A stretch of 64,000 bases of DNA from an uncultured Nitrospirales bacterium (GCA_964474205.1 CAYYRW010000004.1:67050-131049); one strand, 5' to 3'. Positions 51,317 through 56,533 are shown, counted from the first letter of the stretch. Notes: generated by a model from the letters alone, not told the origin. Made by a program: numbers and translations.

Positions 51317-54300
51317 ATGCATAAATGGCCGTTTGGTGCAATGCTTGTTTTATGGGCGCTGTGCAATGGTTTTTTTCCGGGGCTGGCCCCGTCCGCACTC
51401 GGGGAAGAAAACGCAGACCTTTCGTCCCTGTATGTTCGGGAATCGTCCTGGCAAAGTACCATGCAGACTGCGCGGGAACGGTATCAGGCATGGCGGGCGG
51501 AACAATTGGGCGGAGCGGACATTGCCTTTGGGACTTGGTATGTAACGAGCCCGTTCAAGATTGCCGCCTCTTCGGAAGCTTTTCCCCCGGAACAAACCAT
51601 TGATGTCAACGCCACAACGCCTGACGGAAAACCCCTCTGGACGATTCGAAATGACTTTGTGGATGGCGCGGTGCATTCTCTGCCGGGCGACAATCTTGCC
51701 GCCGTGTATCTGACGCGCACCCTCACCACTCCAAAGCCTCTGACAATCAACGTTGGCCTGGGCGGCGATGATAACCTGACGCTCTGGCTCAATGGGGCCA
51801 AGGTGACCACCACGGATGTCCGGCCCGGCGCCTCACAGGATGCCGCCACCGCAAGGCTTGCCCTGAATGAAGGCGAGAACCGGCTGGTGTTGAAGGTCTA
51901 CAACCTGACGGGGTCCTGTGCGTTCTATTTCTCCATTCAGAATGATCCGGTGATGACGCTCTGGAACCGGATCAAACAAGACTTCCCGATGGAAACCGGC
52001 TGGGTGGAGCGTGATGCGCCGGACGAGCGGTATGTGGAATGGTTTTCGCTTCCGGACAACAAGAGCGCCCAGGAAGCTTTGCTCACACAGGTTCTGCGTG
52101 ACAGTGGCGAGGCCGGTGAACCCTTGCGAAAAGAACTGGTTGAGCTCGGAAAGGTGCCCGCCCAAGATAAGCAATGGCTGGACTTCTATGTCAAGGCCTG
52201 CACGTTTCGCCAGGGCATGGCGGAACTCGCCCAAGTCAATTTCCCGGCCTTGCGGCTTGCGGTTCAGGATCTGGCGGCCACGTTCCCGGACCGTTACACA
52301 AAATCCAAAAAGTTGCTCGCACACCTCGACGACTATGAAAAAAGAATCCCCAAGATTCAGCAGCACCTTGCAGAAGGCGATGATAAAGGCCTGAAACAAG
52401 TCGAAGAAATTCTTGCGCTCCAATACGAGGCGCTTGGGACCAACCCGCTGCTGGACTTCGACAAACTGCTCCTGGTTAAGCGCGCGGAAGGCAATCTGGG
52501 GTTGCCGCAAAACTGGCAGGGCAACTGTGCCATAGCTTCCGCGGGATATGACAATGAAATCGCCGTGCTCTCCCCCGTCAGCGCCGGGGGCATGCTGACC
52601 ACCTTCTTCAAGCCGGAGAAAGGCGCCTTCGCCGGGGACCTCGATTTGAATTTCGACGCGGACAAAATTCTCTTCTCCATGCCCGGCGCGAACAACCGCT
52701 GGCAGATTTGGGAAATCCAGGCGGATGGCTCCGGGCTGCGCCAGGTCACCCCCGGAGAAGAACCGGACGTGGACAATTACGATCCCTGCTATTTGCCGGA
52801 TGGCCGCATCATTTTCGCGTCCACCCGATGCTTTCAGGGCATTCCCTGCGTGGGCGGCGGGAATACCGTGGCCAACCTGTGCCGCATGGATGCGGATGGA
52901 AAGAACACCCGCCAGCTTTGTTTTGACCAGGACCACAACTGGTGCCCCACGGTGCTCAATAACGGGCGGGTCATGTTTTCGCGCTGGGAATACTCGGACA
53001 CCCCGCACTATTTCAGCCGCCTCTTGTTCAACATGAATCCCGACGGCACAAACCAGAGCGAGTATTACGGCAGCAATTCCTTCTGGCCGAATTCCATCTT
53101 TTACGCCCGGCCCATTCCCGGAAACCCCACACAGGTCGTAGCCATTATCTCAGGGCATCACGGGGTTCCACGCATGGGCGAACTCATTATCCTGGATCCC
53201 GCCAAGGGACGCTTCGAGGCGGATGGTGTGGTGCAGCGCATTCCCGGGCACAATAAAGCGGTCGAGCCCGTTATCATGGACACGCTCGTGGACGGCGTAT
53301 GGCCCAAGTTCCTGCATCCGTATCCGCTGAGCGACAAGTATTTCCTCGTTTCGTGCAAGCCCACCCCGGATTCCCTGTGGGGCATTTATCTGGTGGATGT
53401 TTTCGACAACCGTCTTCGCTTGTGTGAAGTTCCCGGATACGCCCTGCTGGAGCCGGTTCCCTTCCGCAAAACGCAGCGTCCGGCCGTCATTCCCGACACC
53501 GTGAAGCTCGACCGGACGGACGCCACGGTCTATCTCACGGACGTCTATCGCGGCCAGGGATTACAGGGGGTTCCGCGCGGCACCGTCAAATCATTGCGCG
53601 TGTTTGAGATTTATTACACCTATCCCCAGATGGGCGGGCACATCAACATCGGCGTCGAAGGCCCGTGGGATGTGCACCGCATCCTGGGCACGGTCCCGGT
53701 GTACGAAGACGGTTCCGCATATTTCAAAATTCCGGCGAATATCCCCGTGGCGGTGCAGCCGTTGGATGACCAAGGCCGGGCCGTCCAAATCATGCGGAGT
53801 TGGTTTGTGGGCATGCCCGGCGAATCGGTATCGTGCGTGGGATGCCACGAGCAACAGAACATGACGCCGCCTTCCATCCCGACCCTTGCCGCGCGCCGCG
53901 CGCCGGTGGACATTACGCCGTGGAAAGGCCCTGCGCGGGGGTTCAGCTTCAAACGCGATGTGCAGCCGGCGCTCGATACGTTCTGCGTCGGCTGTCACAA
54001 TGGCGCGGGGGAGAACAAAATTCCCGACTTTTCGTCCAAGGATAAACAAGGCCAGAATAATTTTACGCCGTCTTATCTGGCTTTGCATCCCTATGTGCGC
54101 CGCCCGGGGCCTGAGAGCGACTATCACATTCAGAAACCTTTAGAATTCCATGCAAGCACCAGTCCGCTCATCCAGATGCTGGAGAAAGGACATCATGGGG
54201 TGAAGCTCGATTCGGATGCCTGGGACCGTCTGTATACCTGGATCGACCTTAACGTTCCGGATCATGGAACCTGGGGCGAGCACCGCGCCATCCCGGGCGA

Positions 54301-55348
54301 TTTCCATCAACGGCGCTTGGAGATGCGTACAAAGTATGCCAACCGGCCCGAAGATCCGGAAGCCATCCCCGATCTCAAACTGCCCCCGGCTGTGTTCGTC
54401 AAACCCGAGCCTCCCGCCGTCCCCGCGCAACAAGACGTGACCTGCGAAGGCTGGCCATTCGACGGACGCACGGCAGCGGCCTCCCAGCAGCGCCGGACTG
54501 TGGATCTCGGCAATGGCGTCGTGCTTGAGTTTGTGTTGATCCCGCAGGGTGAATTTATCATGGGCGGCAAAGACGGATGCGCCGACGAACAACCGCGCAC
54601 CCGCGTTAAGATTGATAAGCCGTTCTGGATGGCCGTAACTGAAATTACAAATGCGCAATACGCACAGTTTGATCCGAAGCATGAAAGCGGTGTCATTGAT
54701 CAGCATAACAAGGATCACACAACGCGTGGCTATCCGGCCCAGGCCCCCAAGAATCCCGTCATTCGCATTTCCTGGAATGAAGCCATGGCCTTCTGCCAGT
54801 GGCTGTCCCAGAAAACCGGTGAAGCCTGCGCGCTGCCGACCGAAGCCCAATGGGAATGGGCCTGCCGCGCCGGGACGGATACGCCCTTGTGGTACGGTAA
54901 CCTGGATTCCGATTTCTCCGCCTGCGCCAATCTCGCGGACAAGTCGATCCAGCGGCTCGCCGTCGCAGGGATTAATCCACAGCCCATCGAGAACCCCAGC
55001 CCCTTCGATGATTTCCTGCCCAAGGAGCCTCGCTTCAATGATGGCGAACGGATTGTAACCGAGACCGGAAAATACCAGCCCAACCCCTGGGGATTATTCG
55101 ACATGCACGGCAACGTGGCCGAGTGGACCCTTTCCACCTTCCGAGCCTATCCCTATGTGCCTTCGGATGGCCGTGACGATCCCAAAACGCCGGGCAAAAA
55201 GGTGGTTCGTGGCGGTTCCTGGTTCGACCGGCCCCAAACCGCCCGCTCCGCCTACCGCCTCGCCTACGAACCCTGGCAGCCGGTGTATAACGTCGGTTTC
55301 CGGGTGATCTGCCCCGTGAACGACGCCGCTAAAATCGCCCAGAAATAA
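51317..55348 (+). CDS. Giant secreted multidomain protein: PA14-like + TolB-like beta-propeller + di-heme c-type segment + C-terminal FGE/SUMF1-like domain
   Basis: Signal peptide. The PA14-like block is INVGLGGDDNLTLWLNGAKV. Propeller-like repeats include DPCYLPDGRIIFAST and CPTVLNNGRVMFSRWEY. Two CxxCH motifs are CVGCHEQQ and CVGCHNGAG. The C-terminal FGE-like domain carries GEFIMGG...PxxxV, WNEAMAFCQWLSQ, HGNVAEW and RGGSW. Confidence 0.85.
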   Translation: MHKWPFGAMLVLWALCNGFFPGLAPSALGEENADLSSLYVRESSWQSTMQTARERYQAWRAEQLGGADIAFGTWYVTSPFKIAASSEAFPPEQTIDVNATTPDGKPLWTIRNDFVDGAVHSLPGDNLAAVYLTRTLTTPKPLTINVGLGGDDNLTLWLNGAKVTTTDVRPGASQDAATARLALNEGENRLVLKVYNLTGSCAFYFSIQNDPVMTLWNRIKQDFPMETGWVERDAPDERYVEWFSLPDNKSAQEALLTQVLRDSGEAGEPLRKELVELGKVPAQDKQWLDFYVKACTFRQGMAELAQVNFPALRLAVQDLAATFPDRYTKSKKLLAHLDDYEKRIPKIQQHLAEGDDKGLKQVEEILALQYEALGTNPLLDFDKLLLVKRAEGNLGLPQNWQGNCAIASAGYDNEIAVLSPVSAGGMLTTFFKPEKGAFAGDLDLNFDADKILFSMPGANNRWQIWEIQADGSGLRQVTPGEEPDVDNYDPCYLPDGRIIFASTRCFQGIPCVGGGNTVANLCRMDADGKNTRQLCFDQDHNWCPTVLNNGRVMFSRWEYSDTPHYFSRLLFNMNPDGTNQSEYYGSNSFWPNSIFYARPIPGNPTQVVAIISGHHGVPRMGELIILDPAKGRFEADGVVQRIPGHNKAVEPVIMDTLVDGVWPKFLHPYPLSDKYFLVSCKPTPDSLWGIYLVDVFDNRLRLCEVPGYALLEPVPFRKTQRPAVIPDTVKLDRTDATVYLTDVYRGQGLQGVPRGTVKSLRVFEIYYTYPQMGGHINIGVEGPWDVHRILGTVPVYEDGSAYFKIPANIPVAVQPLDDQGRAVQIMRSWFVGMPGESVSCVGCHEQQNMTPPSIPTLAARRAPVDITPWKGPARGFSFKRDVQPALDTFCVGCHNGAGENKIPDFSSKDKQGQNNFTPSYLALHPYVRRPGPESDYHIQKPLEFHASTSPLIQMLEKGHHGVKLDSDAWDRLYTWIDLNVPDHGTWGEHRAIPGDFHQRRLEMRTKYANRPEDPEAIPDLKLPPAVFVKPEPPAVPAQQDVTCEGWPFDGRTAAASQQRRTVDLGNGVVLEFVLIPQGEFIMGGKDGCADEQPRTRVKIDKPFWMAVTEITNAQYAQFDPKHESGVIDQHNKDHTTRGYPAQAPKNPVIRISWNEAMAFCQWLSQKTGEACALPTEAQWEWACRAGTDTPLWYGNLDSDFSACANLADKSIQRLAVAGINPQPIENPSPFDDFLPKEPRFNDGERIVTETGKYQPNPWGLFDMHGNVAEWTLSTFRAYPYVPSDGRDDPKTPGKKVVRGGSWFDRPQTARSAYRLAYEPWQPVYNVGFRVICPVNDAAKIAQK

Positions 55349-55459
55349 ATCCCTGAGCTTCAGCATGCTTGGCGCCCCCTGTGGTGGCAAGTATTTTTCC
55401 CATGTGGTTCGTGGTGTATTATTAAAAGGGGTCTTTTTGTTCCGGGGACCCACACAATG

Positions 55460-55681
55460 TTAATTATGTGTTTGTGATTTTTCCGAAATCCTAATATCCG
55501 GATTTCCAATCTCAAGTTGTTTTCTTATTAGTATGCACAGACTATTCGGCAATTCACCATGGCGGGGCACCGGCGCTTTTCGCTGTGTGCGTGGATTTTT
55601 GTAAATGTCATGGTTGGCTCCTCTGCGAAGAAGTACACACCCCGCCCTCTTGAGTTCCTGTATAAATTCCGTCCGCTTCAC
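55460..55681 (-). CDS. hicA: HicA-family mRNA-interferase toxin
   Basis: VKRTEFIQELKRAGCVLLRRGANHDIYKNPRTQRKAPVPRHG-ELP matches the HicA dsRBD-like toxin. GTG start overlaps the hicB stop (GTGA). Confidence 0.75.
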   Translation of the reverse strand: MKRTEFIQELKRAGCVLLRRGANHDIYKNPRTQRKAPVPRHGELPNSLCILIRKQLEIGNPDIRISEKSQTHN

Positions 55682-55884
55682 ACGTGAAGAACCAGTTCTT
55701 TGATACAGATATCGGCGCCTGAAGGACCTTCCTCGTCCATCATCATCAGTTCGTAGGCTTCTTGAATGTTGTGTTCCAGTTCTTCCAGGGTTTCTCCCTG
55801 TGAGAAAACACCCGGCACTTCCTTGAGGCGGCCCACGTACCAACCTTCATCTTTCCAATACTCAAGGGCAAATGTGCGTACCAT
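55678..55884 (-). CDS. hicB: HicB-family (UPF0150-like) antitoxin
   Basis: YWKDEGWYVGRLKEVPGVFSQGETLEELEHNIQEAYELMM matches the HicB N-domain consensus (Y-A-x-PELPG-SQG-T-EEA-N-EA). AGAGGAGA RBS. Confidence 0.75.
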   Translation of the reverse strand: MVRTFALEYWKDEGWYVGRLKEVPGVFSQGETLEELEHNIQEAYELMMMDEEGPSGADICIKELVLHV

Positions 55885-56146: not shown

Positions 56147-56533
56147 TCACTCTGCGGTTTTATCAACAATGGGTAATCTCCGGACACGAATGGAATCCTG
56201 GCGTATGGCCAAAATGGCTCCTGCTTGAAGCGCTTCGCCACACGTATTCATTGCTTCCTCAAGACGTGGAATTACCGACTCCGCTGTCTCATCATCCAAT
56301 CGAAAAATGATTGTGGATGGCGCCTGCCACCCGCTCTGGGCCAATAAATAGCCAAAATCCAAGTCCATTGTAAGGAGTATCCGGTCCTCATCGCGAGCCT
56401 TTTTCAGAACAAAAGGATCTCTCAATGTCTGAAGTCCTTGTTCCCGGAGATGTATCGCATTGTGATCAGCATTTTTCAGCCATTCGACAACATGCCTGGA
56501 AATCCCCATATCAGCCAAGAAGCGCATATGCAA
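56147..56533 (-). CDS. DUF5615-family PIN-like protein (toxin partner of DUF433)
   Basis: MHMRFLADMGISRHVVEWLKNADHNAIHLREQGL...DEDRILLTMDLDFG matches the DUF5615 consensus (FL-DEN-S-L...G-D..H......SDEEI-A-RIL-T-D-DFG). Confidence 0.75.
   Translation of the reverse strand: MHMRFLADMGISRHVVEWLKNADHNAIHLREQGLQTLRDPFVLKKARDEDRILLTMDLDFGYLLAQSGWQAPSTIIFRLDDETAESVIPRLEEAMNTCGEALQAGAILAIRQDSIRVRRLPIVDKTAE

Follow-up and report, generated by a model that had tools for sequence, protein, structure and literature searches.

A predicted exported dihaem homolog of hydrazine synthase alpha with a fused, cysteine-less FGE-fold domain, encoded beside sugar-type genes

Introduction

Hydrazine synthase (HZS) was for a long time considered to have no relatives, and how it originated is an open question for the evolution of anaerobic ammonium oxidation (anammox). 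Here we describe a gene for a 1343-residue protein at positions 51317-55348 (plus strand) of a 64,000-nucleotide stretch of DNA from an uncultured Nitrospirales bacterium (GCA_964474205.1, CAYYRW010000004.1:67050-131049; the whole stretch is called the window in the following). Judged from its sequence, the protein belongs, as a variant, to the non-anammox HZS-like haem proteins that have been recognised in recent years. It is set apart from them by a fused domain of the formylglycine-generating enzyme (FGE)/PvdO fold without the cysteines of FGE, and by its recurrent association with catabolic genes of sugar type.

In HZS, the proximal ligand of haem alphaI is Tyr591, while His587 is diverted to a zinc site (PMC12758564, PMC12607021). 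According to excerpts of Dalcin Martins et al. (2023, PMC10732223), hzsA-like genes occur beside fused hzsBC genes in metagenome-assembled genomes (MAGs) of Phycisphaerae, and it was at one time suggested that they might serve as novel anammox markers. A later survey of the non-anammox homologs by sequence and structure (Hagglund et al. 2025, PMC12758564) grouped co-located pairs into clades I-IV; Anaerohalosphaera lusitana, Thermogutta terrifontis, Aquisphaera giovannonii and Novipirellula artificiosorum are cultured bacteria that it names for HZS-like clusters. According to this survey, key HZS residues are not conserved in these homologs; an anammox function was rejected for them, and it was proposed that HZS arose from pre-existing periplasmic haem proteins. 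By keyword, its main text yielded neither a domain of FGE, SUMF1 or sulfatase type nor a neighbourhood with dihydroxyacetone kinase (DhaK/DhaL/LsrF-like/cupin); a supplementary table has only one entry, of 1110 aa, assigned to the "SUMF1/EgtB/PvdO family". The excerpts of PMC10732223, which were not searched for these terms, mention neither an FGE-fold fusion nor a DhaK/DhaL/LsrF-like/cupin context. In the literature searched, nothing relevant was found for the operon combination described below or for hydrazine synthase in connection with FGE-sulfatase or Hydrogenedentes.

The C-terminal domain has described relatives of its own. PvdO is needed for the last, periplasmic oxidation of dihydropyoverdine; in purified form it was inactive and no cofactor was detected, and according to a review it may act by itself or depend on further components such as an electron-transport system (PMC6206403). 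An FGE fold without cysteines serves as a pure protein binder in Tsi3, an immunity protein of the type VI secretion system (bioRxiv 10.1101/2021.05.21.445229).

A homolog of hydrazine synthase alpha in the centre of the protein

Two significant Pfam domains are found in the 1343-residue protein, HZS_alpha (PF18582) and FGE-sulfatase (PF03781). The match to PF18582 (E=3.7e-32) covers model positions 1-98 of 98 and scores 111.2 bits, the gathering cut-off being 26.6. An HzsA-middle-like domain, which an earlier reading of the window from the sequence alone (the sequence-only reading in the following) had suggested looking for, is therefore present. Two AlphaFold2 (AF2) models were computed from a 78-sequence alignment, one for aa 380-1343 (predicted local distance difference test, pLDDT, 85.6; predicted template modelling score, pTM, 0.85) and one for aa 28-400 (pLDDT 93.1). 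Together with Pfam, they give the order, from the N- to the C-terminus, of signal peptide, short helical pair, beta-sandwich, all-helical domain, propeller, middle domain, helical cytochrome-like domain, Pro-rich linker and FGE-fold domain. The individual features, all on the plus strand, are as follows.

51317-55348, plus strand: complete open reading frame (ORF) with stop codon, ATG start, 1343 aa (translation)
51317-51403, plus strand: putative Sec signal peptide, aa 1-29 (MHK, hydrophobic stretch, SALG|EEN; judged by eye)
51524-51946, plus strand: N-terminal beta-sandwich, aa ~70-210, weakly PA14-like or GH2-sugar-binding-like (AF2, pLDDT 93.1; Foldseek)
51950-52441, plus strand: all-helical domain, aa ~212-375, without Pfam match (AF2 secondary structure, pLDDT >90)
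52466-53551, plus strand: six-bladed beta-propeller, aa ~384-745, predicted counterpart of the HZS-alpha N-terminal domain (AF2; Foldseek to 5c2v_A/D and TolB; profile alignment)
53579-53851, plus strand: HZS_alpha middle domain, aa 755-845, beta-rich, ending in the first haem motif (PF18582)
53834-53848, plus strand: CVGCH, aa 840-844, haem alphaI position (aligned to CSGCH of 5c2v_A)
53864-54346, plus strand: helical cytochrome c-like domain, aa ~850-1010, predicted counterpart of the HZS-alpha C-terminal domain, with the second CVGCH (AF2 helices; Foldseek to 5c2v_A)
53984-53998, plus strand: CVGCH, aa 890-894, haem alphaII position (aligned to CAMCH of 5c2v_A, within chain residues 640-669)
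54527-55309, plus strand: FGE-sulfatase-fold domain without the catalytic Cys pair, PvdO-like, aa 1071-1331 (PF03781; Foldseek)

When the model of aa 380-1343 was compared to the PDB by Foldseek, the top structure was the alpha subunit of Kuenenia HZS (5c2v chains A and D, E=2e-25 to 4e-24). The alignment extends over 781-786 columns on a target of 768-770 residues, with a template modelling score normalised to the target (TMt) of 0.58-0.61, and comprises all three domains of the HzsA fold. A core profile built from aa 380-1069 of eight family members and run against the PDB sequences had HZS-alpha as its sole significant match (E=7e-10); the aligned segments are mostly collinear and run from the propeller over the middle domain to the region of the second haem. 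On these profile and model comparisons, the protein contains, in residues ~380-1010, a full-length homolog of HZS-alpha. The sequence-only reading had described this region as a TolB-like propeller followed by a generic dihaem segment. While the propeller and the haem motifs are present, the region is better described as a whole HZS-alpha homolog: the TolB resemblance is at the level of the fold only (Foldseek E~7e-10, TMt ~0.5; model TIGR02800 reaches 15.5 bits, the cut-off being 343), HZS-alpha matches far better, and Pfam PD40 has no match in the protein at E<=1. About 24 strands in the AF2 model are consistent with six blades.

Both haem motifs read CVGCH. In the profile alignment the first one falls on CSGCH at chain residues 559-563 of HZS-alpha, which are alphaCys583-His587 of haem alphaI, and the second one occupies the alphaII position. 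They are 50 residues apart, not about 55 as initially stated. From the Cys and His content of the protein, 0.008 CxxCH motifs are expected by chance. Both are invariant in 34 and in 78 homologs; the sequence-only reading, which was to fall if the motifs lay in non-conserved loops, is therefore not refuted on this count. Covalent attachment of haem c requires export. As the two c-type motifs need export and the N-terminus resembles a signal, we infer that the protein is exported and carries two c-type haems, and of all our inferences this is the one we hold with most confidence.

The first motif continues as CHEQQN, and the nearly invariant Asn848 occupies the position of alphaTyr591. With Asn at this position, ordinary His ligation of the first haem is to be expected. 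Candidate axial ligands of the haems are the invariant His924 and His959, the nearly invariant His937, His945 and His983, as well as Met826 and Met833. The NCBIfam equivalog model for hydrazine_alpha (NF052339) scores 49.1 bits, while its cut-off is 800. The reading as a true hydrazine synthase was rejected on the missing Tyr591, this score and the residues of the partner protein that are described below.

The protein has thus several features in common with HzsA of K. stuttgartiensis (5C2V chain A): a six-bladed propeller, a "middle" beta domain and a helical haem domain in equal order, two CxxCH motifs at equivalent positions and, in many of its relatives, an adjacent beta-gamma-like gene. 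It differs from HzsA in its sequence (~18% identity), in having Asn for the haem-ligating Tyr591, in the additional N-terminal sandwich and helical module and in the C-terminal FGE-fold domain. The context is also different, as the window has no beta-gamma gene, the neighbouring genes are of sugar type and the MAGs of the nearest relatives are labelled Hydrogenedentes or Nitrospirales rather than as anammox bacteria. The non-anammox HZS-like clusters (PMC12758564 and the excerpts of PMC10732223) have, in Planctomycetota and other phyla, an alpha-like gene beside one for a fused beta-gamma-like protein; this pairing occurs in 24 of 81 related loci, but neither in the window nor at the 90%-identical relative. 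Retention of the haem sites with loss of HZS-specific residues is common to these clusters and the present family. Clades I-III of PMC12758564 differ in being associated with FG-GAP/CRTAC1 and ABC-transporter genes.

Within the family, aa 380-1343 show 64-79% identity across phyla. Conservation is very high, again across phyla, for a large number of polar residues of the propeller and of the surroundings of the haem motifs (mean column identity 64%). This conservation argues for a subunit of a redox enzyme rather than a scaffold.

The N-terminal sandwich is the least conserved part (33-54% identity) and is not recognisable in about a quarter of those relatives that have the FGE-fold domain. 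A PA14-like N-terminus had been proposed from the sequence. A beta-sandwich is indeed modelled here, but Pfam PA14 (PF07691) has no match in the protein at E<=1, and PA14 as well as GH2/GH3/GH31 (glycoside hydrolase, GH) sugar-binding sandwiches are matched weakly by Foldseek (E 1e-4 to 1e-3, TMt <=0.43). The term PA14-like, as far as the model goes, is a resemblance in fold and not a family membership.

An FGE fold without the catalytic cysteines

The ORF and the FGE-type motifs quoted from it (WMAVTEITNAQYAQF, WNEAMAFCQWL, HGNVAEW and RGGSWFD) are all present in the translation of 51317-55348, and NCBI and JGI/IMG each hold a record of an identical 1343-aa product (259-kb contig). An FGE-family domain at the C-terminus, a claim that was to fall if no family match were obtained, is borne out by PF03781 with E=1.5e-45 (156 bits, cut-off 23).

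The active site was compared to that of human FGE in a Smith-Waterman alignment, for which the human segment was verified on PDB 1y1e_X. Human GGSYMC(336)HRSYC(341)YRYRCAAR is replaced here by GGSWFDRPQTA---RSAYR, so that the loop is three residues shorter and free of Cys; there is no Cys at all in aa 1204-1331. The replacement loop W-x-D1304-R-P-x-x-A1309 (here WFDRPQTA) is kept in all of the 34 aligned homologs. As the Cys-free loop is common to them all, the copper site which defines FGE is missing family-wide. FGE function was rejected on the absence of the Cu-binding Cys pair (human C336/C341), and the identification as an FGE, for which a look at the catalytic cysteines had been recommended, does not hold. 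With FGE/SUMF1 the domain shares the Pfam family, the fold and the conserved RGGSW and GFR motifs; it differs from them in lacking the Cys336/Cys341 pair, in its predicted export and in having no conserved association with sulfatases.

By Foldseek, the top solved structure for the C-terminal domain is periplasmic PvdO (5hha, TMt 0.78), with FGE at ~0.65; human, S. coelicolor and T. curvata FGE are matched at E~1e-11 to 1e-12. In a PDB sequence search with this domain, PorK/GldK came out best (E~4e-17). Membership in PorK/GldK, EgtB or PvdO was rejected because the scores are far below the curated NCBIfam cut-offs (GldK TIGR03525, 103.6 bits, cut-off 350; PvdO NF051459, 94.4 bits, cut-off 500), and the same applies to SenA and OvoA. 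PvdO resembles the domain in being periplasmic and its top structural match, with the closest sequence models sub-threshold for both families; it differs in that the FGE-fold domain is fused here to a dihaem module and that no pyoverdine genes are nearby. No gldL/M/N-type neighbours were seen in the ORF list of the window or in the gene tables of the homolog contigs, and no lipobox is evident by eye in the 1343-aa protein.

The FGE-fold domain has a His-rich insert, I-D-Q-H-N-K-D-H-T-T (aa 1127-1136, positions 54695-54724), in which K1132, D1133, H1134 and T1135 are invariant. From this pattern, the insert may form a family-specific metal or ligand site.

A type I sulfatase had been pointed out at 25534-27024, with the suggestion that it could be functionally related to the FGE-like protein. 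The sulfatase as such, the only one found, is confirmed (25408/25534-27024, plus strand; PF00884 E=3e-43, CGPSR motif, no obvious signal peptide). The functional link is not: the two genes are 24 kb apart, and no sulfatase family is among the recurrent neighbour families of 85 related loci. No FGE with the Cys pair was found in the window, and a second FGE-fold gene was not detectable there with the 1343-aa protein as query.

A very large and widespread family

The combination of domains had been considered a very unusual architecture, which turned out to be wrong. In a word-indexed search with 1732 matches, the best 120, full-length homologs, all combine PF18582 and PF03781; most of them are 1290-1370 aa long and they are 55-90% identical. 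At least 576 species genomes (one genome per species) encode a relative, and in a HMMER search of 1.84 billion cluster representatives 4824 clusters at 50% identity match at E<=1e-30. The majority of the best 150 of these 4824 comprise the FGE-fold domain in addition to the HZS-like core and measure 1040-3230 aa. By these sequence matches, the PF18582+PF03781 fusion is a common, very large uncharacterised family, and it may possibly be the largest branch of the non-anammox HZS homologs.

The carriers are labelled Hydrogenedentota, Planctomycetota (Phycisphaerae, Pirellulales, Planctomycetales and others), Verrucomicrobiota/Akkermansiaceae, Kiritimatiellae, Lentisphaerae, Sumerlaeota and Armatimonadota. 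Most of the related sequences derive from MAGs, as do almost all of the 80 carrier genomes listed (out of at least 576). Among the matches listed, the top relative (90% identity) comes from a MAG labelled "uncultured Nitrospirales", and is followed by sequences labelled Hydrogenedentes or Nitrospiraceae. The MAGs of the top homologs (L006, L007, L014, L029; related loci are given L numbers here) carry the NCBI labels Nitrospirales or Nitrospiraceae. Hydrogenedentota-like organisms are suggested by the other near homologs as well as by the gene content, with its PulG-like pilin and many glycoside hydrolases, and the Nitrospirales/Nitrospiraceae labels of the closest MAGs may be unreliable. At 110-556 (minus strand), the window encodes a small protein whose N-terminus (FTLIELMIV) looks, by eye, like that of a type IV pilin/PulG.

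For 85 loci that were fetched, 54 copies have the full architecture and 23 are without a recognisable N-terminal sandwich. The same loci contain 14 further "core-only" paralogs of 800-1000 aa that consist of the propeller, the middle domain and the second haem domain. These paralogs, which have no FGE-fold domain, occur at loci L008, L010, L018, L019, L025, L032, L051 and others. On the contig of P0008, a core-only paralog sits between the FGE-fused copy and the beta-gamma-like gene.

A recurrent sugar-type gene cluster

In the window, the gene for the haem protein is the last of six genes on the same strand, which are separated by gaps of 44, 21, -8, 35 and 114 nt. The features of this cluster that lie outside the haem-protein gene are listed here.

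47515-47543, plus strand: sigma-70-like promoter match TAGACT-17-TATAAT, TG-extended, upstream of the first cluster gene (consensus; weakly indicative)
47589-47909, plus strand: VOC/glyoxalase-like small protein, 106 aa, first gene of the cluster (tblastn, 59-64% identity to the 104-107-aa first genes of related clusters)
47954-48955, plus strand: DhaK (Dak1), subunit of the dihydroxyacetone-kinase family (Pfam Dak1 E=1.9e-104; coordinates by tblastn)
48977-49621, plus strand: DhaL (Dak2) subunit (Pfam Dak2 E=4e-49; NCBIfam dha_L_ycgS 172.6 bits, cut-off 138.3)
49614-50498, plus strand: LsrF-like protein of the DeoC/DhnA-type class I aldolase family, 294 aa (Pfam DeoC E=4.3e-19; gene start from homologs)
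50534-51202, plus strand: cupin with twin-arginine translocation (Tat) signal, D-lyxose/D-mannose isomerase family, 222 aa (19-homolog profile)
51203-51316, plus strand: intergenic spacer of 114 nt with a strong GC hairpin, without U-tail (RNA fold -44.1 kcal/mol, z=-2.46 relative to shuffles)
55400-55414, plus strand: terminator-like hairpin and T-run, 3' of the stop codon (consensus match only)

The assignments differ in their precision. For the 106-aa protein there is no NCBIfam match in the window, and its homolog at L005 has a faint Pfam Glyoxalase match (E=0.066). DhaK reaches 318 bits with NCBIfam dhaK1, which is under the equivalog cut-off of 406. The LsrF-like protein scores 438 bits (cut-off 297) with NF006081, a 3-hydroxy-5-phosphonooxypentane-2,4-dione thiolase model, followed by the models for ADH-synthase. 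As a single sequence the cupin has no Pfam or NCBIfam match. Its 19-homolog profile retrieves the D-lyxose isomerases 7nzo (E=7.7e-26) and 2y0o (E=1.2e-23), and the metal-ligand positions H122/H124/E135/H191 are conserved together with the twin-arginine signal (S/T-R-R-x-hydrophobic). To our knowledge, an exported member of this normally cytoplasmic cupin family is unusual. The promoter and terminator sites fit an operon from 47.5 to 55.4 kb, yet their counts are not above chance (for the promoter, relative to the shuffled expectation). The spacer hairpin could be an element of intra-operon processing, stability or attenuation. An Rfam scan of the whole window returned no riboswitch or other RNA match.

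Known isomerase-kinase-aldolase routes are FucI/FucK/FucA and RhaA/RhaB/RhaD, and the Lsr route consists of LsrK/LsrG/LsrF. The neighbours of the haem protein provide a comparable set, with a homolog of cupin aldose-ketose isomerases, a kinase for hydroxymethyl ketones, an aldolase or thiolase of LsrF/DhnA type and a VOC-like protein. The enzyme families are different from those of the Fuc, Rha and Lsr routes, the isomerase homolog has a Tat signal here, and we know of no haem protein in routes of this kind.

Neighbour families of related loci were defined by all-against-all clustering of ORFs from 82 loci, where the greedy ORF caller also gave spurious antisense families. The VOC-like/DhaK/DhaL/LsrF-like/cupin set flanks homologs of 50-67% identity in MAGs labelled Hydrogenedentota, Planctomycetota, Phycisphaerae and Verrucomicrobiota; at L065, L067, L074 and L077 the order is rearranged with the content kept. 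Among the 33 loci that are well flanked (at least 6 kb on both sides), 15 have Dak/LsrF-like genes and 12 a gene for a ~610-aa beta-gamma-like protein, the two occurring together in 10. Among the exported neighbours, the cupin is the most constant one (28 of 81 loci). Dak genes usually occur in one or few copies per genome. Their occurrence within 10 kb at about half of the loci, in different phyla and with the order shuffled, favours a functional link over synteny by descent.

The fused beta-gamma-like gene is co-located in 24 of 81 related loci. In its ~610-aa product, a propeller that resembles HZS-beta (5c2v_B, E=2e-35) is joined to a dihaem domain of the cytochrome c peroxidase (CCP)/MauG type that resembles HZS-gamma (5c2v_C, E=9e-28; Pfam CCP_MauG 1.8e-10). 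The partner at L005 matches HZS-gamma with E=2e-29, with peroxidases next; in a stretch of low alignment confidence, Met, Gly and His stand in place of gammaHis144, gammaCys165 and gammaAsp168.

Further recurrent families, in about 8 loci each, are RidA/chorismatase-like proteins, NHL/ScyE-like propellers and Tat-signal Gfo/Idh/MocA oxidoreductases, while nitrogen-cycle gene families are not among the recurrent neighbours. In about 8-10 related loci, the beta-gamma-like gene is followed on its 3' side by genes for a RidA-domain protein of ~370 aa, which resembles FkbO/Hyg5 chorismatases below the threshold, and a ~310-aa secreted NHL/ScyE-like propeller (for example L005 16004-17134; L004 15989-17065 and 17139-18065); neither gene is in the window. 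Neither a RidA-like gene nor a second alpha-like gene was found there.

Other genes of the window

Downstream of the alpha-like gene and before MurJ, the window has a HicA-toxin-like gene (55460-55843, minus strand) and a DUF5615/PIN-like gene (56147-56533, minus strand). Their position, where related loci have the beta-gamma gene, suggests that the partner was lost or replaced in this lineage. On the other side, a GH106-like alpha-L-rhamnosidase homolog (44431-47304, minus strand) adjoins the cluster divergently, and at the Phycisphaerae locus L005 a GH78 rhamnosidase (17230-19473) is found 3 kb downstream of the cluster. These rhamnosidases give a hint of 6-deoxy-sugar use, but do not recur across loci and are treated as incidental.

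Beyond the GH106 gene, 3 kb upstream of the cluster, a sodium/solute symporter is encoded at 42692-44296 (plus strand; TIGR00813, 320 bits). A longer ORF that overlaps it in another frame (42514-44307) has no family match and is probably spurious. The symporter could be the importer of the pathway substrate.

DsbD-type proteins supply reductant for the maturation of periplasmic cytochromes c. One such thiol:disulfide interchange protein (DsbD_N, DsbD_TM, thioredoxin-like) is encoded at 5920-7668 (plus strand). Other exported or envelope genes are those for a DUF2961 protein (4269-5672, minus strand) and a right-handed beta-helix/NosD-like protein (35361-37508, minus strand).

Proposed function and rival explanations

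It had been supposed that the protein performs oxidative chemistry outside the cytoplasm with electrons passing through the haems, and this remains the most plausible general function. More specifically, we consider it moderately probable that it is exported and serves, within a "hydrazine-synthase-like" enzyme, as the redox subunit that carries the haems, with a link to a pathway of carbohydrate type, and that it is neither an FGE nor a hydrazine synthase. A carbohydrate-type substrate is suggested by the isomerase/kinase/aldolase logic of the neighbours and by the two accessory domains, which are of sugar- or peptide-binding kinds. The sandwich and the FGE-fold domain would bind the substrate, a small organic compound that may be derived from a carbohydrate. 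The first haem, predicted to be His-ligated as opposed to the Tyr ligation of HZS, would be the reactive or near-substrate centre, and the second one would relay electrons to or from a partner. This partner would usually be the beta-gamma-like (beta-propeller/CCP-MauG-like) dihaem protein; in the present genome it may be encoded elsewhere, be replaced by another (soluble) cytochrome, or be dispensable. With the lowest confidence of all these steps, the PvdO-like domain might present the substrate to the haem module or exchange electrons with it.

The product, or a freed sugar, would be isomerised by the exported cupin and then be taken up. DhaKL would phosphorylate its hydroxymethyl-ketone end, the LsrF/DhnA-type enzyme would split it into dihydroxyacetone phosphate and a C2/C3 fragment, and the VOC-type enzyme could handle a reactive aldehyde or diketone. 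As a speculative variant, exported isomerisation and haem-dependent dehydrogenation could lead to a deoxy-diketo sugar prior to phosphorylation by DhaKL and cleavage by the LsrF/DhnA-type enzyme.

Several points weigh against this proposal. No beta-gamma-like gene was found by tblastn in the 64-kb window, and none is beside the 90%-identical relative. No cluster gene at all occurs within 10 kb in 15 of the 33 well-flanked loci, and as many genomes have several paralogs, the operon link may hold for one subfamily only. Even in the window, co-transcription of the cupin and the haem-protein gene is not certain because of the 114-nt spacer with its strong hairpin. An exported isomerase that feeds cytoplasmic kinases needs a transporter, and the symporter is outside the conserved set. 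By analogy with Tsi3, the FGE-fold domain may be a pure binding module without a redox role. Finally, the AF2 models represent the protein chain only and do not include the haems.

Some of the same observations lend themselves to other explanations. The protein might belong to a MauG-like machine for protein modification, with an exported peptide bound by the FGE-fold domain and one of its residues oxidised by the haems and a CCP/MauG-like beta-gamma partner; the Tat-exported cupin, as the most constant exported neighbour, would be the candidate target. FGE itself uses this fold as a peptide-binding scaffold, Tsi3 uses it to bind a protein, and related loci encode the CCP/MauG-like partner. 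We nevertheless regard this as unlikely, since the four cytoplasmic small-molecule enzymes of the cluster suit a catabolic route better, the partner gene was not found in the window and no cofactor-bearing target protein is evident. Alternatively, the protein could be non-catalytic. It would then be either a cytochrome that transfers electrons and has binding domains, or an envelope protein with a structural or adhesive role, comparable to PorK/GldK, which use the FGE fold structurally. PorK/GldK being the top PDB sequence matches of the C-terminal domain and the example of Tsi3 would agree with such a role. We judge it improbable, because the score for GldK is far below its cut-off (103.6 against 350), neither a lipobox nor a gldL/M/N-type neighbour was seen, and an enzyme would typically show the very high conservation of polar residues that is seen in the propeller and near the haem motifs.

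HZS-alpha is the only characterised homolog of the core, and the Phycisphaerae hzs-like genes were, according to the excerpts of PMC10732223, once put forward as possible anammox markers. An enzyme acting on nitrogen oxides or hydroxylamine, be it HZS-alpha-like or an exported detoxifier of NO or NH2OH, with the sugar genes being incidental, has therefore to be considered. It appears even more improbable than a non-catalytic role: Tyr is missing at the alphaTyr591 position and the hydrazine_alpha score is 49 against 800, gammaHis144, gammaCys165 and gammaAsp168 are absent from the L005 partner (as far as the low-confidence stretch can tell), the recurrent neighbours are of sugar type without any nitrogen-cycle family, and an anammox function of the non-anammox homologs has been rejected (PMC12758564). 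A genuine FGE, which matures sulfatases such as that at 25534-27024 and draws electrons from its haems, would be in line with the PF03781 match and with a CGPSR sulfatase in the same window. It is highly improbable, as the catalytic cysteines are absent and the loop is three residues shorter in all aligned homologs, the haem protein, with its c-type haem motifs and signal-like N-terminus, is predicted to be exported whereas the sulfatase has no evident signal peptide, and the sulfatase is distant and without counterpart among the recurrent neighbours.

A wider view can be formulated, which we find possible but hold only tentatively. HZS-like alpha(+FGE-fold)/beta-gamma complexes of heterotrophic bacteria of the Planctomycetota-Verrucomicrobiota-Chlamydiota (PVC) group, Hydrogenedentota and allied lineages might constitute a new class of exported haem enzymes that act on a carbohydrate-derived substrate and feed a Tat-isomerase/DhaKL/LsrF-DhnA route, and theirs might be the ancestral chemistry of anammox HZS.

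Significance

Two cautions for annotation follow from this locus: a match to "FGE-sulfatase" does not denote a sulfatase maturase, and an hzs-like match is not an anammox marker. For the non-anammox HZS homologs, the fixed fusion to a PvdO-like FGE-fold domain and the recurrent operon partnership with Tat-cupin, DhaKL, LsrF/DhnA-type and VOC genes are new handles. The locus turns an "unknown haem protein" into testable hypotheses, which concern the inducing sugar or keto compound, the substrates of the cupin and the kinase, and oxidation by the haem protein. On the wider view, if true, the fusion with the PvdO-like domain would reveal how "oxidoreductases" of the FGE fold without the Cys pair come by a redox partner. 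The family and its context, rather than sulfatase maturation, are what makes the locus interesting, as they provide a handle on the role of the relatives, perhaps the ancestors, of hydrazine synthase.

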